DNA of 64,000 nucleotides, taken from the NCBI GenBank assembly GCA_964392285.1, contig CAYMOW010000002.1:1-64000 (forward strand), written 5' to 3'. Below the pieces are notes generated by a model, which had not been told where the DNA came from, did not search any database, and worked only from the letters and a program-made list of their open reading frames with translations. Origin of the DNA: an uncultured Candidatus Saccharibacteria bacterium (GTDB lineage Bacteria > Patescibacteriota > Minisyncoccia > Phycocordibacterales > WO2-35-19). The position numbers were made by a program, and so were the translations under genes. Of the stretch, positions 1-54,229 are shown piece by piece. Positions within the stretch are counted from its first letter, which is position 1; each line of letters begins with the position of its first letter.

Positions 1-430
1 CGGGCGAATTGCCGACAATCTCGGCCGCCAAAAGATGAGCCGTCCAATTAACGGTTGTGGTCTTGCCTCTGGTACCAGTAATACCAACAATTTGCTGGCT
101 CTGACAATTTTTGAAAAACAAACTTAGCTCATTCTCGATTATTTTGCCCTTAGCCTTGGCTAGCTTGATAAAGGGGCTGTCGATCGGCACGTCTGGGTTG
201 ACCACAATGATCTCGTTTTCCAAGAAATCTTGCTCGCGGTGCTCGCCTAGCACAAACTTTATAGCCGGCAAGTCGCGCAATTTGGCCAGAGAAGGCTCAA
301 GAAATTCCGGAGTCTTCATATCGGTGACTGTGAGCAGAGCTCCCCTTTCGGCCAAAAATCTGGCCGTGGCCACACCGCCACCCAAAATTCCAAGACCCAT
401 CAGCAATACTTTTTTGCCTTTCAAGTCCAT
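1..430 (-). CDS. murD: UDP-N-acetylmuramoylalanine--D-glutamate ligase MurD, N-terminal part (gene runs off the left edge)
   Basis: Minus-strand translation from ATG at 430..428 reads MDLKGKKVLLMGLGILGGGVATARFLAERGA... with the VGITGTRGKTTT P-loop typical of Mur ligases. There is no stop before position 1, so it is missing from the ORF table. Confidence 0.7.
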   Translation of the reverse strand, partial: MDLKGKKVLLMGLGILGGGVATARFLAERGALLTVTDMKTPEFLEPSLAKLRDLPAIKFVLGEHREQDFLENEIIVVNPDVPIDSPFIKLAKAKGKIIENELSLFFKNCQSQQIVGITGTRGKTTTVNWTAHLLAAEIVGNSP

Positions 431-439
431 TGTTACAAA

Positions 440-1957
440 TTATACGCCAGTAATCTTTTCGATCGAAGCACCGATTGAGTTTAGTCGTTCGACCACATCT
501 TCATAACCGCGATTAATCGAATAGACATTGCGGAGGATAGAAACACCGGGCGCGGCGAGCATAGCAATAAGTATGATCATCGCCGGGCGAAGCGCCGGCG
601 GACAAACAAGTTGAGCCGGTTTGAGCGGTGTTGGCCCAGTCACAAAAACTCGGTGCGGGTCGGCAAGGGTGATATTTGCCCCCAACCGATTGAGCTCGGT
701 AAAATAAATCGCCCGATTCTCCCACATCCAATCGTGAATGAGCGTGGTACCCTCGGCTTGCGTAGCGATCGGCACAAAGAAAGGCAGATTGTCTGAGTTG
801 AGCCCAGGGTAAGGCAGCGGATGAATTTTGTCTCGCAGAGATTTGAGCTTAGACGGCAAGAGGCTTAGGTCGACCAATTTGGTTTTACCATTTTTGGCTA
901 AATATTCTTTAGAAGTTTTATATTTGAGACCCATCATCTTGAGCTTTAGCAGTTCGACCGCCAAGAAATCAATCGGACAGCGCAAAATTTTCAGACTAGA
1001 TTTGGTGGTAACCGCCGCCCCAATAAACATCATCGACTCAATCGGATCTTCGCTGTTGTAATACTCGACATTCTGATTTATCTCTTTGAGTCCGTGGACG
1101 CGCAGATTGGTCGTGCCGACACCTTCGATCTCCACTCCCAATTTCTGCAAAAAGAAACAAACTTCTTGGACCTGATAATTGGGCGGCGCAAAATGAATTT
1201 CAGTTACACCCGGCACCAAGGCCGCCATCATGATGGCATTGATCGCGGCTGTATCGCTCGCCTCATACATCACAATTTTAGCTTTGTGGATCTTTGTACT
1301 CGAAACCTCATAGCGCTTTTCGACCGTCTTGATCGAAACTCCAAACTCGGCCAAAGCCGAGCGATGAGCGCCGATAGTTCGTTCGCCCATCTTGCAACCA
1401 CCAGAATGAAGCAAGACAAACTTACCCAAATTGTGCACCAGCGCCGGCAAAAGCATCAAGCTTGAGCGGACATTGGCAACCGACGGGTGAAGCAGACCTT
1501 GCTTGTCAAACTTTTTGGGTGGCTCGATCTCGAGAGTTTGCTTGTCTTGCCACCTGACTTTGACGCCAAGGGCTGTGAGTATCTCGATCATTCGACTAAC
1601 CTCTTCGATCCTCGGAATACCGTGCAGTGTGGTTGTGCCTCGATTGAGAAGCGCGGCAGAGAGGAGCCCCATGGCGCCATTCTTGGAAGGGTTGGTAGTG
1701 ATCGAGCCATGAAGCTTCCGACCGCCCTCGATCCGAAAGTCGATCGAATCAGAGAGCGAAACAATCTTGTGTTCGAGCGCGTCGCCGATGCGCAAGAGTT
1801 CGCTCGCCGTCAGATTTTGCCGACCACTCTCAATTCGCGCAATGGTACTCTGAGCCGTATTGAGCCTCTTTGCGAGCTCTTCTTGAGTAAGGAGCCTCTT
1901 TTCACGCAATCTTTTGATAAATTCACCGATGGCTTTCTGGTTTTGATTGGTTTTCAT
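440..1957 (-). CDS. murA: UDP-N-acetylglucosamine 1-carboxyvinyltransferase MurA with an in-frame N-terminal XRE-type helix-turn-helix domain
   Basis: ORF 440..2230. The real start is most likely ATG at 1957 (MKTNQNQKAIGEFIKRLREKRLLTQEELAKRLNTAQSTIARIESGRQNLTASELLRIGDAL = classic XRE HTH). This is directly followed by the MurA core (KLHGSITTNPSKNGAMGLLSAALL, GGCKMGERTIGAHRSAL, C-terminal NRGYEDVVERL). The 91 codons upstream would overlap the murB start region. Confidence 0.8.
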   Translation of the reverse strand: MKTNQNQKAIGEFIKRLREKRLLTQEELAKRLNTAQSTIARIESGRQNLTASELLRIGDALEHKIVSLSDSIDFRIEGGRKLHGSITTNPSKNGAMGLLSAALLNRGTTTLHGIPRIEEVSRMIEILTALGVKVRWQDKQTLEIEPPKKFDKQGLLHPSVANVRSSLMLLPALVHNLGKFVLLHSGGCKMGERTIGAHRSALAEFGVSIKTVEKRYEVSSTKIHKAKIVMYEASDTAAINAIMMAALVPGVTEIHFAPPNYQVQEVCFFLQKLGVEIEGVGTTNLRVHGLKEINQNVEYYNSEDPIESMMFIGAAVTTKSSLKILRCPIDFLAVELLKLKMMGLKYKTSKEYLAKNGKTKLVDLSLLPSKLKSLRDKIHPLPYPGLNSDNLPFFVPIATQAEGTTLIHDWMWENRAIYFTELNRLGANITLADPHRVFVTGPTPLKPAQLVCPPALRPAMIILIAMLAAPGVSILRNVYSINRGYEDVVERLNSIGASIEKITGV

Positions 1958-1991
1958 ACTAGCAATATAGCATATGTGATATAATAAATAT

Positions 1992-3023
1992 ATGATGTAT
2001 GTGGAAAGCGAAGCTCTAATCCCCAACTCCTTTGCGCTAAAATCAAAGGCTAGGTTTTTGCTCCAAATTAAAACCAAAGCAGACGTTCTCGACGCCGACC
2101 GTTTGGCCAAAGAAAAGAAGTTGCCTCTCCTCACCTTGGGCTCAGGCACCAACGTAATCCTACCCGAATATATTGAGGCCATAGTCGCCCTAACCAAAAC
2201 AAAAGGCCTAAAAACAAAAGACCTCCACATCGAGGTTCAGGCTGGTGAGGAGTGGGACAGGGTGGTTGGGTTTGCAGTCGAGAATAATCTTTCGGGTCTT
2301 GAAGCACTTTCGTCTATCCCTGGCAAAGCTGGCTCAGCTCCAATCCAAAACATTGGCGCTTACGGCACAGAAATTGGAGACGCTCTTGTCTCCGTCGAAG
2401 CCTACGACACCTCAAAAAAAGATTTTGTGGTTATCAGAAAAAAGGATTGCGGTTTTAGCTATCGCGACAGCCTTTTCAAAAGAAACCCCAACCGATTTAT
2501 AATTACCTCGCTTATCCTAGAGCTCTCCAAAGAATCTCCAAGTATCCCCAATTACAAAGATGTCCAAAGTTATTTCGCCAAAAGGGAGAATCCAAAACCC
2601 AAACTCAAAGAAATACGGGAGGCGATTATAGAAATAAGACAAAACAAATTGCCCGATTATCACCAAATTCCCAACTGCGGCTCATTCTTCAAAAATCCAA
2701 TCATCGAAACCAAACTGGCCCAAAAAATAAAACAAGACTTCCCCGACCTGCCAATATATACCCCAAACCTCCCAACGTCCGACGTTGGGAGATCGAAAAC
2801 TTCAAACAAAGTCAAAATTCCGGCTGGCTACCTAATCGAAAAAGCTGGTCTCAAAGGCGCAAACATAGACAACATAGTCGTTTATGAGCGCAACGCTCTT
2901 GTCCTCACTAACCCCTTTGGTGCTTCCTTTGCCAACCTAGTGTCAGCCAAAAACAAAATCCAAAAAATTGTCTTCCAAAAATTCGGTGTCCTGCTCGAGC
3001 CGGAAGTAAATATAAGAATATAA
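1992..3023 (+). CDS. murB: UDP-N-acetylenolpyruvoylglucosamine reductase MurB
   Basis: FAD-binding-domain motifs LGSGTNVI and the MurB C-terminal signature NCGSFFKNP; divergent from murA with a 34-bp shared intergenic region. Confidence 0.85.
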   Translation: MMYVESEALIPNSFALKSKARFLLQIKTKADVLDADRLAKEKKLPLLTLGSGTNVILPEYIEAIVALTKTKGLKTKDLHIEVQAGEEWDRVVGFAVENNLSGLEALSSIPGKAGSAPIQNIGAYGTEIGDALVSVEAYDTSKKDFVVIRKKDCGFSYRDSLFKRNPNRFIITSLILELSKESPSIPNYKDVQSYFAKRENPKPKLKEIREAIIEIRQNKLPDYHQIPNCGSFFKNPIIETKLAQKIKQDFPDLPIYTPNLPTSDVGRSKTSNKVKIPAGYLIEKAGLKGANIDNIVVYERNALVLTNPFGASFANLVSAKNKIQKIVFQKFGVLLEPEVNIRI

Positions 3024-3302: not shown

Positions 3303-3342
3303 GTCTCACCTCCTTTTTCTTTTATACCATATATGAGATAAT

Positions 3343-4722
3343 TTGAAAACAATGATTCTGGATAAAAATAATTACCACTTTATAGGCATCGGGGGGATTG
3401 GGATTTCGGCCATTGCCCAAATGCTTTTAAGGCAAGGCAAAAAGGTCAGCGGGTCGGACCAAGCAAGGTCGGAAATTACTGATGATTTGGAAAAGCTTGG
3501 CGCCAAAATATTTATTGGTCACAAAGCCGAAAATATTACCAAGGATGTAGAAGCAGTAATTTATACCATCGCTATCCCCGACTCTAATCCCGAGATGCAA
3601 GAAGCTAGAAATAGAGTTTTCGAGACAAAATCAGCCGTAGAGCGAACATCCACAGCGAAGCGAGGACAAGAGAGCGGAACGGCTGATTTTGTCGAGAAAC
3701 CCATCATTATTGCTTCCTACCCCGAAGCGCTTGGGGAACTTTCGAAACAAAAATACACTATCGCCATTTCTGGCACTCACGGCAAAACCACGACTACAGC
3801 AATGATCGGACATATTTTGCAAAAAGCTGGTCTCGAACCAACAATTGTTGTTGGTTCGAAAATGCTCTCCGAGAACGAAAACAAAGAGAGCAATTTTTAT
3901 GGCGGGGCAGGTAAATATTTGGTAGTCGAGGCTTGCGAGTATCGACGTTCTTTTCTCAATCTTTCGCCCCAAATTCTTGTGATTACAAACATCGAAGCAG
4001 ACCACCTCGATTACTATAAAGATCTGGCCGATATCGAGAGCGCTTTCGACGAACTCAAAGCCAAAGTGCCAAAAGACGGGCAAATCATCACCGAAGCTGA
4101 ATACGAAAAGGTAGAGATAAAGAAGGAGGATCTGCTTATCCCCGGCAAGCACAATATCAAAAACGCCCAAGCCGCCGTGAAGGCCGCCGAAGCAATCGGT
4201 ATATCCGCAGAAGAAGCCAAGGAATATCTCAAGAGTTTTCGGGGTACTTGGCGTCGACTCGAATATAAAGGTACAAAACAATCACCTGATCTGAAAATTG
4301 AAAATATTTTTTACGACGACTATGCTCATCATCCGAGCGAAATCAAGGCTTCCCTTTTGGCCTTGCGCGAGAGATATCCAGAGCACCACCTCATCGCCAT
4401 CTTCGAACCACACCAACAAAGTCGGACCAAACTACTCTTTGATGATTTTGTCTCATCGCTCTCTTTGGCTGACCTAGTCTTCATTGCACCAATCTACAAG
4501 GCGCGCGAGACACCCGACCCCACCATCTCCAACCAAATCTTGGCCGAAGCAGTCAACAAATTTAAGCCGAGTATGGCAGTGGAGGGCGTAGAAGAATTGA
4601 AAGAGAAACTATCACCCCCTAACCCCCTCTTGTATCAAGAGGGGGGACCAGACACAAAAACTTGTATCGTCCTAATGGGCGCAGGTGATATCTACAAATG
4701 GACACCTGCTCTCCTTGCCTAA
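3343..4722 (+). CDS. murC: UDP-N-acetylmuramate--L-alanine ligase MurC
   Basis: HFIGIGGIGISAIAQMLLRQGKKVSGSD N-terminus, IAISGTHGKTTTTAMIGHIL P-loop and a C-terminal Mur ligase domain; contains a roughly 30-aa insertion (KSAVERTSTAKRGQESGTADFVEK). Confidence 0.9.
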   Translation: MKTMILDKNNYHFIGIGGIGISAIAQMLLRQGKKVSGSDQARSEITDDLEKLGAKIFIGHKAENITKDVEAVIYTIAIPDSNPEMQEARNRVFETKSAVERTSTAKRGQESGTADFVEKPIIIASYPEALGELSKQKYTIAISGTHGKTTTTAMIGHILQKAGLEPTIVVGSKMLSENENKESNFYGGAGKYLVVEACEYRRSFLNLSPQILVITNIEADHLDYYKDLADIESAFDELKAKVPKDGQIITEAEYEKVEIKKEDLLIPGKHNIKNAQAAVKAAEAIGISAEEAKEYLKSFRGTWRRLEYKGTKQSPDLKIENIFYDDYAHHPSEIKASLLALRERYPEHHLIAIFEPHQQSRTKLLFDDFVSSLSLADLVFIAPIYKARETPDPTISNQILAEAVNKFKPSMAVEGVEELKEKLSPPNPLLYQEGGPDTKTCIVLMGAGDIYKWTPALLA

Positions 4723-53410: not shown

Positions 53411-54229
53411 CTATTTTAGACCAAGTACCTTTTCAACAAAAGGCTTAAATTTATTGAACTCTGCAGCAACATCTGGGCCTATCTCCACTATCGACTCTTC
53501 ATATTTTATTTCTTTTTTTAAACTTCTTTCTACATAATCGTCGTGGATTTCCCCCAACCATGCAGATAGTTTAAAAATAGAATAAAACAGCCAATGTAAG
53601 TTTCCGCCACAATTCTCAGCAGCAGGGACTTGCATAAGATTCGATAATAATCGAAATCTTTTTCTTAATTTATGAAATTGTTCTATTGGAAGATTGTTTG
53701 CCTGTACTAGTGTTGCAATGTGATCTAAAATACTTTTCGCATATTTTTTGAATTCTTCTGTATCTATAAAATTTACTGAAAAATCTAGGTCGCTCAAACT
53801 ATCTAAAATACCTTCCCTAATTTCTGGTTGAGATGATATCCAGTAACTGTCATTGTACTCACCCAAAAGAAACAAAAAGTGATTTAATTTTTCTCCACAT
53901 TTATGGCTGGTGTCGGTAAATCTATATAGAGCTTTCAGGATCAGCCCATAACGCCTAACCTGTTTTAAATAAGAAAAGCTTTCTTCATTTGCTTCAAGTT
54001 TAATTTCTCGTACAAACCTCTCCTTATCAAAAATAAATTCAAATGCTTTTCTTGCTTCTTCAAAAATATGTTCACGATATTGTTTATCTTCAAAAATATT
54101 TGAAAAATCAACTTCATCAGGATTCAATTCTGGTCTTGTTCTAATATCAAAAAAACGAGAGACCAGGATTGGTTCAGTCTGTATGTTCTCTAAATTATTT
54201 TTCATATTTGATATATTATCAGGATTCAA
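53411..54229 (-). CDS. hypothetical protein (272 aa), AT-rich
   Basis: ORF only; I recognise no family. Confidence 0.4.
   Translation of the reverse strand: MNPDNISNMKNNLENIQTEPILVSRFFDIRTRPELNPDEVDFSNIFEDKQYREHIFEEARKAFEFIFDKERFVREIKLEANEESFSYLKQVRRYGLILKALYRFTDTSHKCGEKLNHFLFLLGEYNDSYWISSQPEIREGILDSLSDLDFSVNFIDTEEFKKYAKSILDHIATLVQANNLPIEQFHKLRKRFRLLSNLMQVPAAENCGGNLHWLFYSIFKLSAWLGEIHDDYVERSLKKEIKYEESIVEIGPDVAAEFNKFKPFVEKVLGLK

Follow-up and report, generated by a model that had tools for sequence, protein, structure and literature searches.

What does a DNA-binding domain do on the enzyme that opens the peptidoglycan pathway? This question is raised by the first 64,000 nucleotides of contig CAYMOW010000002.1 (assembly GCA_964392285.1) of an uncultured Candidatus Saccharibacteria bacterium of the small-genome Patescibacteria type, hereinafter referred to as the window, where the gene for MurA (UDP-N-acetylglucosamine (UDP-GlcNAc) 1-carboxyvinyltransferase) encodes at its N-terminus an XRE-type helix-turn-helix (HTH) domain and is transcribed divergently from murB. 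Comparison of related loci makes it likely that the protein is a bifunctional enzyme-repressor autoregulating murA-murD, murB and murC via a palindromic operator, so that the fusion probably sets its own level; autoregulation is strongly supported by comparison and extends, as predicted from the distribution of operator sites, to a small peptidoglycan regulon.

The open reading frame (ORF) called mechanically at 440..2230 of the minus strand had been taken as a whole for the fusion gene in an earlier note made from the letters of this DNA. The fused part stood while the 5′ boundary did not: the real coding sequence (CDS) is contained within this ORF and ends at 1957, and the stretch 1958..2230 is an overlap with murB on the opposite strand. 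The start is assigned to the 1957 ATG because the equivalent methionine is the first residue in 80 related loci and, in agreement with this, many of them have an in-frame stop only 3-30 nt 5′ of it. The intergenic spacer of 34 bp described previously (1958..1991) is exact, being confined by the ATG codons of murA (1957, minus strand) and murB (1992, plus strand). As translated, the protein begins with MKTNQNQKAIGEFIKRLREKRLLTQEELAKRL (MKTNQNQ...), and its HTH and MurA parts follow each other in one frame without a stop or frame change at the boundary, so the in-frame XRE HTH noticed earlier at the N-terminus of MurA is borne out both by the sequence and by domain matches in Pfam and NCBIfam. 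The junction, LEHKIVSLSDSIDFRIEGG, is kept across 37 aligned orthologues with the pattern HKIVSL..S.DF.I.GG.

Assignment of the N-terminal domain relies on the Pfam model HTH_3 (PF01381), which matches amino acids (aa) 14-61 with 45.2 bits against a cut-off of 23 (E = 9.9e-12), HTH_31 and HTH_19 likewise exceeding their cut-offs, and on an AlphaFold 2 (AF2) monomer model built on the 37 orthologues (predicted local distance difference test, pLDDT, 87; predicted template modelling score, pTM, 0.80). The model, for which the earlier note had asked, predicts a compact helical bundle with a helix-turn-helix composed of helices 3-20, 25-31, 36-43 and 51-60 (pLDDT 84-91 over aa 11-50), that is, four helices, whereas many XRE domains have five. 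In the recognition-helix region T34, Q36, S37, A40, R41 and E43 are invariant among the orthologues. The two domains are connected by a linker predicted to be flexible over about 10 aa, where pLDDT drops to about 61 (aa 61-70) and, for aa 67-69, under 50; elsewhere in the modelled MurA fold only the Cys loop (aa 187-189) and the segment of aa 382-386 are floppy.

The same architecture was retrieved from protein databases in more than 100 clusters of 64-100% identity, nearly all of about 505 aa with both domains, which belong, where named, to Candidatus Zambryskibacteria or Patescibacteria and are labelled simply as MurA. Scanning of one genome per species revealed relatives in 210 genomes, and 80 loci kept from them constitute the genome set, where the HTH is in frame in 78 cases. 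The architecture occurs in at least 395 metagenome stretches as well, and 79 further fusions of catalytic type were collected among metagenome loci; all comparisons together encompass about 170 loci. Exhaustive profile search extended the fusion to MurA-like proteins with identity as low as 31-49%.

Alignment of 110 nt 5′ of the start codon of each orthologue revealed an 18-bp palindrome, TATATCAyATrTGATATA, nearly invariant within otherwise unalignable upstream regions; about 150 of 160 loci have it just 5′ of HTH-murA irrespective of the upstream gene. Of 79 loci in the genome set, 74 possess its 16-mer with no more than one mismatch in the 150 nt preceding HTH-murA (half-sites are perfect in 61), with a modal distance to ATG of 9 nt, and the metagenome set gave 77 self-proximal sites in 80 loci and a single other site in 636 kb. 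The first 625 kb of related loci yielded 14 further sites, nine directly upstream of murC, two upstream of murB and two adjoining genes of a C39-like peptidase and a DD-carboxypeptidase, and non-self sites total 15 in 1.26 Mb scanned; the association is essentially restricted to HTH-murA and peptidoglycan genes. The position weight matrix (PWM) derived from upstream sites of the genome set was run over the window, and its best match, 24.5 bits, is operator 1, which fills the murA/murB spacer and was also the single hit of a simple pattern search allowing one mismatch (0.09 expected). The sole other strong site, operator 2 with 23.0 bits, precedes murC, equivalent murC-proximal sites being present in 9 related loci. 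By comparison, therefore, operators lie at promoters of both the own gene of the fusion and genes of its pathway (murA/murB and murC sites). The third-best PWM site of the window (54197-54216, ATTTTTCATATTTGATATAT) scores 13.5 bits, some 10 bits less than operators 1 and 2. It falls at the start of a 272-aa ORF without Pfam match, and a DUF2975 gene follows 300 nt further on; the match probably arose by chance and was set aside as an operator owing to the weak score and neighbours having no link to peptidoglycan. Outside the window, extra sites adjoin a Peptidase_C39_2-like gene (L017, 5539-5558), lie inside or beside a DD-carboxypeptidase (Peptidase_S11) gene (L034, 1101-1120) or precede an AAA_33 kinase-like ORF which stands in front of murA (L140, 2263-2282). 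Since these three are remote from murA, murB and murC, the regulon, as they suggest, varies by lineage yet stays peptidoglycan-related.

The palindrome and the recognition helix change together. Of 133 loci whose protein has the helix motif T-S-Q-S, 127 contain two ATATCA half-sites; of 13 with T-T-Q-S, 12 contain two ATAGCA half-sites; and the rarer version T-A-Q-S, to which the protein of the window belongs, pairs with mixed half-sites, one ATATCA and one ATAGCA in the window itself. The covarying pair is thus residue 35 (S, T or A) and base 4 of the half-site, and the paired replacement, S to T in the protein and T to G in DNA, arose at least three times, a count based on which proteins are nearest to each other in the MurA domain only.

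The position of the operator relative to the putative promoters points to the mode of action. Extended -10 elements proposed for murB and HTH-murA were read by eye and with the aid of spacing statistics and are hence inferred: the -10 hexamer ends 6-8 nt before ATG in 82 of 111 loci, and TG occupies positions -15/-14 in 76 of 111. With -10 elements placed this way relative to ATG, the operator should overlie the -10 element and the spacer. Generic scanning for sigma-70 promoters found none in the 34-bp spacer since it demands a -35 box and the proposed promoters are of the extended -10 type. Termination of the -10 element only 6 nt before ATG suggests leaderless transcripts of both murA and murB. 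The HTH, presumably dimeric, would bind the 18-bp palindrome, which coincides with the two extended -10 boxes standing back to back in the divergent murA(-murD) and murB promoters (1965-1984) and, in its second copy, with the murC promoter (3322-3341). As the -10/extended -10 region of apparently leaderless transcripts is covered by the site, a bound protein would block RNA polymerase, and more MurA would then mean less transcription of murA, murD, murB and murC; such negative autoregulation would stabilise the level at which the first cytoplasmic steps of peptidoglycan synthesis run. Autoregulation of the divergent murA/murB promoter had been put forward from the window alone, and comparison supports it: the spacer holds an operator over both -10 boxes, this operator tracks HTH-murA in about 150 loci and covaries with residue 35, and no site of 9 bits or more was found anywhere in the loci of the three closest HTH-less MurAs (52-56% identity). 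The picture is also wider than first proposed, with a second operator 5′ of murC and murD joined to murA.

If the protein does bind here, it might activate the mur genes or regulate them in both directions instead of repressing them. Some XRE-family proteins are activators of transcription, and weak -35 elements of many loci could call for one; the site, nevertheless, overlaps the -10/extended -10 element and fills the spacer, which is typical of steric repression, and where a -35 element is clear (TTGACA or TTGCAA) the palindrome is placed between it and the -10 box, making an activating or dual role rather improbable. A further possibility is that the palindrome is a mere bidirectional promoter, composed of two back-to-back extended -10 boxes, and the HTH acts otherwise, for instance at another site or as a structural appendage. 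Each half-site, TGATATAA(T), does fit the extended -10 consensus, the upstream gene is divergent in roughly two-thirds of loci, and two HTH-less variants considered below keep the palindrome. However, the whole palindrome is also retained in 22 loci with a co-directional upstream gene, in three of which a tRNA gene is immediately upstream, both half-sites being perfect in 18, and it must therefore be more than two divergent -10 boxes. A generic element would recur in the 1.26 Mb scanned instead of being essentially limited to HTH-murA and peptidoglycan genes, and it would hardly covary with a residue of the recognition helix. Moreover, absent as it is from the closest HTH-less murA loci, the motif persists in a genome with 69% G+C (L167, GCA_018603905.1), where a catalytic HTH-MurA of 49% identity is preceded, 13 nt before ATG, by the perfect AT-rich variant palindrome ATCTCATATGTGAGAT (3970-3989) overlapping the end of the upstream gene. 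On the co-directional contexts and the covariation the idea of two divergent -10 boxes only was rejected, and a purely promoter role is estimated as quite improbable.

An enzyme-repressor has to be an enzyme, and the larger domain has the features of one. Pfam EPSP_synthase matches aa 77-492 (E = 1.6e-45), and the NCBIfam MurA model PRK09369 scores 312.7 bits over aa 74-502, above its cut-off of 297. Solved MurAs are matched by sequence at E from 1e-43 to 1e-48 with identity of about 26-27%, attesting a divergent sequence. The model has the two-domain enolpyruvyl-transferase (EPSP synthase/MurA) fold, and the top 45 Foldseek matches in PDB are all MurA (or NikO) chains at E of about 1e-34 and target-normalised template modelling scores of 0.85-0.91. 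Residues K22, N23, R91, C115, R120, D305, R371 and R397 of the E. coli enzyme correspond to K92, N93, R164, C188, R193, D389, R415 and R457; all eight catalytic or substrate-binding positions are invariant in the 37 orthologues and intact in 164 of 172 aligned sequences, a set taking in five MurAs with no or degenerate HTH, the eight non-intact ones being of the pseudo-type described next. The fusion is thereby predicted to be a working, catalytically competent MurA.

Eight fusion proteins have lost most of the catalytic signature (P0137, P0140, P0142, P0146, P0147, P0197, P0256 and the L082 protein), so that P0137 reads RNNKTDRH versus KNRCRDRR at the eight positions, and these HTH-pseudoMurA proteins keep the recognition helix. 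In every readable locus their gene and an operon that includes a canonical stand-alone murA (murA-murB or murD-ligase-ligase-murA-murB) point away from each other, the spacer between them containing the same operator or its symmetric variant. Behind the pseudoMurA gene, most of these loci have a ddl or murC-like ligase gene. A trigger enzyme seems here to have been duplicated, giving an enzyme on the one hand and a dedicated mur-operon regulator on the other. The existence of the class implies that the module of HTH and MurA fold has been selected for mur regulation without catalysis, and retention of the fold in it hints at a regulatory role of the MurA domain. The opposite change is loss of the HTH in some Zambryskibacteria-type MurAs with about 75% identity (P0075, P0097, P0102; L019 and L081). 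We also noticed a 529-aa MurA of 48% identity, P0133, with an N-terminal extension of about 75 aa resembling a decayed HTH (GSVIRQARIKSGLTLEEISIKVGIT) and matched by no Pfam HTH model, which may be an intermediate in HTH loss. Catalytic fusion, HTH-less enzyme and dead fusion accompanied by stand-alone murA represent a natural series for the change from enzyme to transcription factor.

The sister class invites the supposition that in the window, too, the MurA-like domain serves solely for sensing, as in a pseudoenzyme regulator of the BzdR kind, and that a working MurA is encoded elsewhere in the genome. Besides HTH-pseudoMurA genes adjoining stand-alone murA, it can draw on a score below the strict equivalog cut-off and on a genome viewed through 64 kb. 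It is at odds with the integrity of the eight residues, lost in sequences of pseudo-type only, with the location of the gene at the murD-murA/murB/murC synteny position, which HTH-less orthologues of about 75% identity also occupy, and with the absence from the window of a second murA, whereas loci of pseudo-type always adjoin a canonical one; we consider it very improbable. As to the joining of a small HTH gene and murA by a frameshift or missed stop, suspected earlier as a sequencing or assembly artefact, it is favoured a priori by MurA being normally stand-alone and by one database entry (P0125) which is a frameshifted copy of the N-terminus of the window protein, but its probability is practically nil: the widely searched N-terminus and junction returned the same fusion with the same junction in more than 100 clusters, 78 of 80 species-genome loci and 79 further metagenome loci, the linker motif HKIVSL..S.DF is conserved, and such conservation of the in-frame junction across hundreds of independent assemblies excludes an artefact. 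No stand-alone HTH homologue was found with the N-terminal 99 aa as a query, which gave 7 matches, all of them fusion fragments at contig ends or the frameshifted P0125, and an origin from a split gene elsewhere is therefore undocumented.

Several observations weigh against the enzyme-repressor. The strict equivalog model TIGR01072 gives 302.9 bits at a cut-off of 392.7; neither a second murA nor an HTH paralogue was found within the 64-kb window, and this part of the genome leaves room for a second murA elsewhere. The AF2 monomer has no evident dimer interface, and the stand-alone enzyme is usually considered monomeric. Promoter and operator roles appear not fully separable by sequence because the right half-site is itself the extended -10 consensus, TGATATAAT. 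Operators of murC are restricted to the own clade of the window. Finally, L019 (3960-4000) and L081 (160-195) have no HTH, yet a complete palindrome lies 9 nt 5′ of their ATG, and the flanking sequence, about 5 kb to each side, contains no stand-alone HTH; this could be a recent loss of the HTH with the site persisting as a promoter, or the target of a factor acting in trans. Autoregulation by an enzyme-repressor is the reading we favour.

The features are collected in the table.

Table. Features of the HTH-murA region (positions in the window; those of the last row refer to the loci named)
Feature	Position	Strand	Characteristics
HTH-MurA fusion CDS	440..1957	-	505 aa and stop; stop codon 440-442, ATG 1955-1957
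XRE/Cro-C1 HTH domain	1772..1957	-	aa 1-62; Pfam HTH_3, AF2 model
Recognition-helix region	1829..1858	-	aa 34-43, T-A-Q-S-T-I-A-R-I-E
Linker	1742..1777	-	aa 61-72, EHKIVSLSDSID; predicted flexible
MurA domain	443..1741	-	aa 73-505; Cys188 codon 1394-1396
Operator 1 (putative)	1965..1984		Palindrome ATATAGCATATGTGATATAA, 16-bp core 1967-1982
Extended -10 of murB (putative)	1977..1985	+	TGATATAAT; 6 nt before murB ATG 1992
Extended -10 of HTH-murA (putative)	1964..1972	-	TGCTATATT on the minus strand; 6 nt before ATG 1957
Operator 2 (putative)	3322..3341		TTATACCATATATGAGATAA; 10 nt upstream of murC ATG, overlaps putative -10 GATAAT 3337-3342
murD, 5′ part	2..430	-	Pfam MurD-like_N, E = 3.8e-11; ATG 428-430; cut by window edge
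murB (UDP-N-acetylenolpyruvoylglucosamine reductase)	1992..3023	+	Pfam FAD_binding_4 and MurB_C; divergent, operator 1 in common with HTH-murA
Small ORF, 77 aa	3069..3302	-	Divergent from murC, operator 2 in common; strong GGAGG ribosome-binding site
murC (UDP-N-acetylmuramic acid (UDP-MurNAc):L-Ala ligase)	3352..4722	+	Pfam Mur_ligase N, M and C domains
HTH-pseudoMurA genes	L082 1603-3138; L162/L163 6001-7503; L164 6001-7536; L165 1605-3140; L166 6001-7518		

Among the neighbouring genes, murD starts 9 nt past the murA stop and is probably co-transcribed with HTH-murA, and a divergent murB is present in roughly half of the 80 genome-derived loci. The likely start of murC is ATG 3352 (MILDKNNYHF), as orthologues begin with MILDK; the mechanical start, TTG 3343, would fall directly after the putative -10 box. 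The 77-aa ORF opposite murC has no Pfam match; similar small ORFs adjoin operators in L001, L008 and L014, and an unrelated small ORF occupies its place in L004, L013, L036 and L062. In L003 (1613 onward, plus strand) and L006 (2161 onward, plus strand) an ORF of 250-276 aa is divergent from murC with the operator in common. The one in L003 has a weak sub-threshold match to Cu-oxidase_4 (E = 0.0046), a family which we take to include the peptidoglycan editing factor PgeF/YfiH, and the one in L006 is similar to it by eye only.

No description of the HTH-MurA fusion or its operator was found in the literature within reach of our search. Functionally closest are bifunctional enzyme-repressors, and with a catalytic and a DNA-binding domain in one polypeptide the fusion has the composition of a trigger enzyme. 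The textbook example, proline utilisation A (PutA) of enterobacteria, autorepresses a divergent promoter pair, but it is a catabolic flavoenzyme with a ribbon-helix-helix domain and redox-driven membrane association as the switch. BirA, the repressor of the bio operon, likewise binds a palindrome that overlies the divergent promoters of genes in its pathway. Its HTH is winged and not of XRE type, the enzyme is a ligase using the end product of the pathway while MurA performs the first step of the regulated one, and its DNA binding needs the corepressor biotinyl-AMP, no ligand dependence being known for HTH-MurA. The N-terminal HTH is carried by biotin ligases of group II and is missing from group I (PMC4016012), a parallel to the HTH-less variants of MurA. 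The term trigger enzyme is used in the work describing RbkR, a bifunctional archaeal riboflavin kinase and regulator discovered by comparative genomics (PMC5397151). RbkR resembles the fusion in having a predicted operator upstream of pathway genes and differs from it in being archaeal and in the DNA-binding domain, enzyme and pathway. BzdR, whose C-terminal shikimate-kinase fold senses benzoyl-CoA, has the same N-terminal HTH superfamily on an enzyme-derived domain and in this resembles the HTH-pseudoMurA class. With its XRE HTH and shikimate-kinase-like domain it is described as an enzyme evolved into a regulator (PMC3602430). The window protein, unlike it, has a MurA fold with catalytic residues kept; the match of the model PRK08154 is confined to the HTH (aa 5-69) and scores 25 bits where the cut-off is 204, and since the effector domain is a MurA fold the protein stands outside the BzdR subfamily. 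Stand-alone MurA of E. coli, E. cloacae and other bacteria shares the fold and catalytic residues and has no DNA-binding domain.

Whether the MurA domain also senses is a matter on which we are tentative. PDB complexes matched by Foldseek, including 3swd and 3su9, contain by their titles UDP-MurNAc and the Cys115-phosphoenolpyruvate (PEP) adduct, and binding of the downstream product UDP-MurNAc in solved structures makes MurA a plausible sensor. Modulation of DNA binding by UDP-GlcNAc, PEP or UDP-MurNAc on this domain is speculative, its plausibility coming from these complexes together with the fold retained in the non-catalytic class. It is possible, if doubtful, that the domain is the sensor of a one-protein feedback loop, where the open-to-closed transition upon UDP-GlcNAc/PEP binding, or UDP-MurNAc, alters the affinity of the HTH to the operator, so that flux through the first step sets transcription of murA-murD, murB and murC, and that this loop was ancestral to the dead HTH-pseudoMurA regulators. 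If so, to our knowledge, neither a transcription factor devoted to the cytoplasmic Mur pathway nor a set of factor, operator and regulon in uncultivated Patescibacteria would have been defined before.

Control of MurA is, as far as we know, mainly post-translational, by feedback inhibition and, in Firmicutes, by ClpCP/ReoM-dependent proteolysis, and we know of few if any regulatory circuits worked out for Patescibacteria (candidate phyla radiation, CPR), a huge and mostly uncultivated lineage. Enzyme-repressors as such are already known, and this putative one comes with a concrete operator and a specificity rule. The prediction is unusually concrete, an 18-bp operator with two sites in the window and residue 35 paired with base 4 of the half-site, and is open to standard biochemistry without cultivation of the organism. 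If true, a MurA repressing its own promoter and those of murB, murC and murD would be a novel and highly economical way of controlling an essential pathway targeted by antibiotics.

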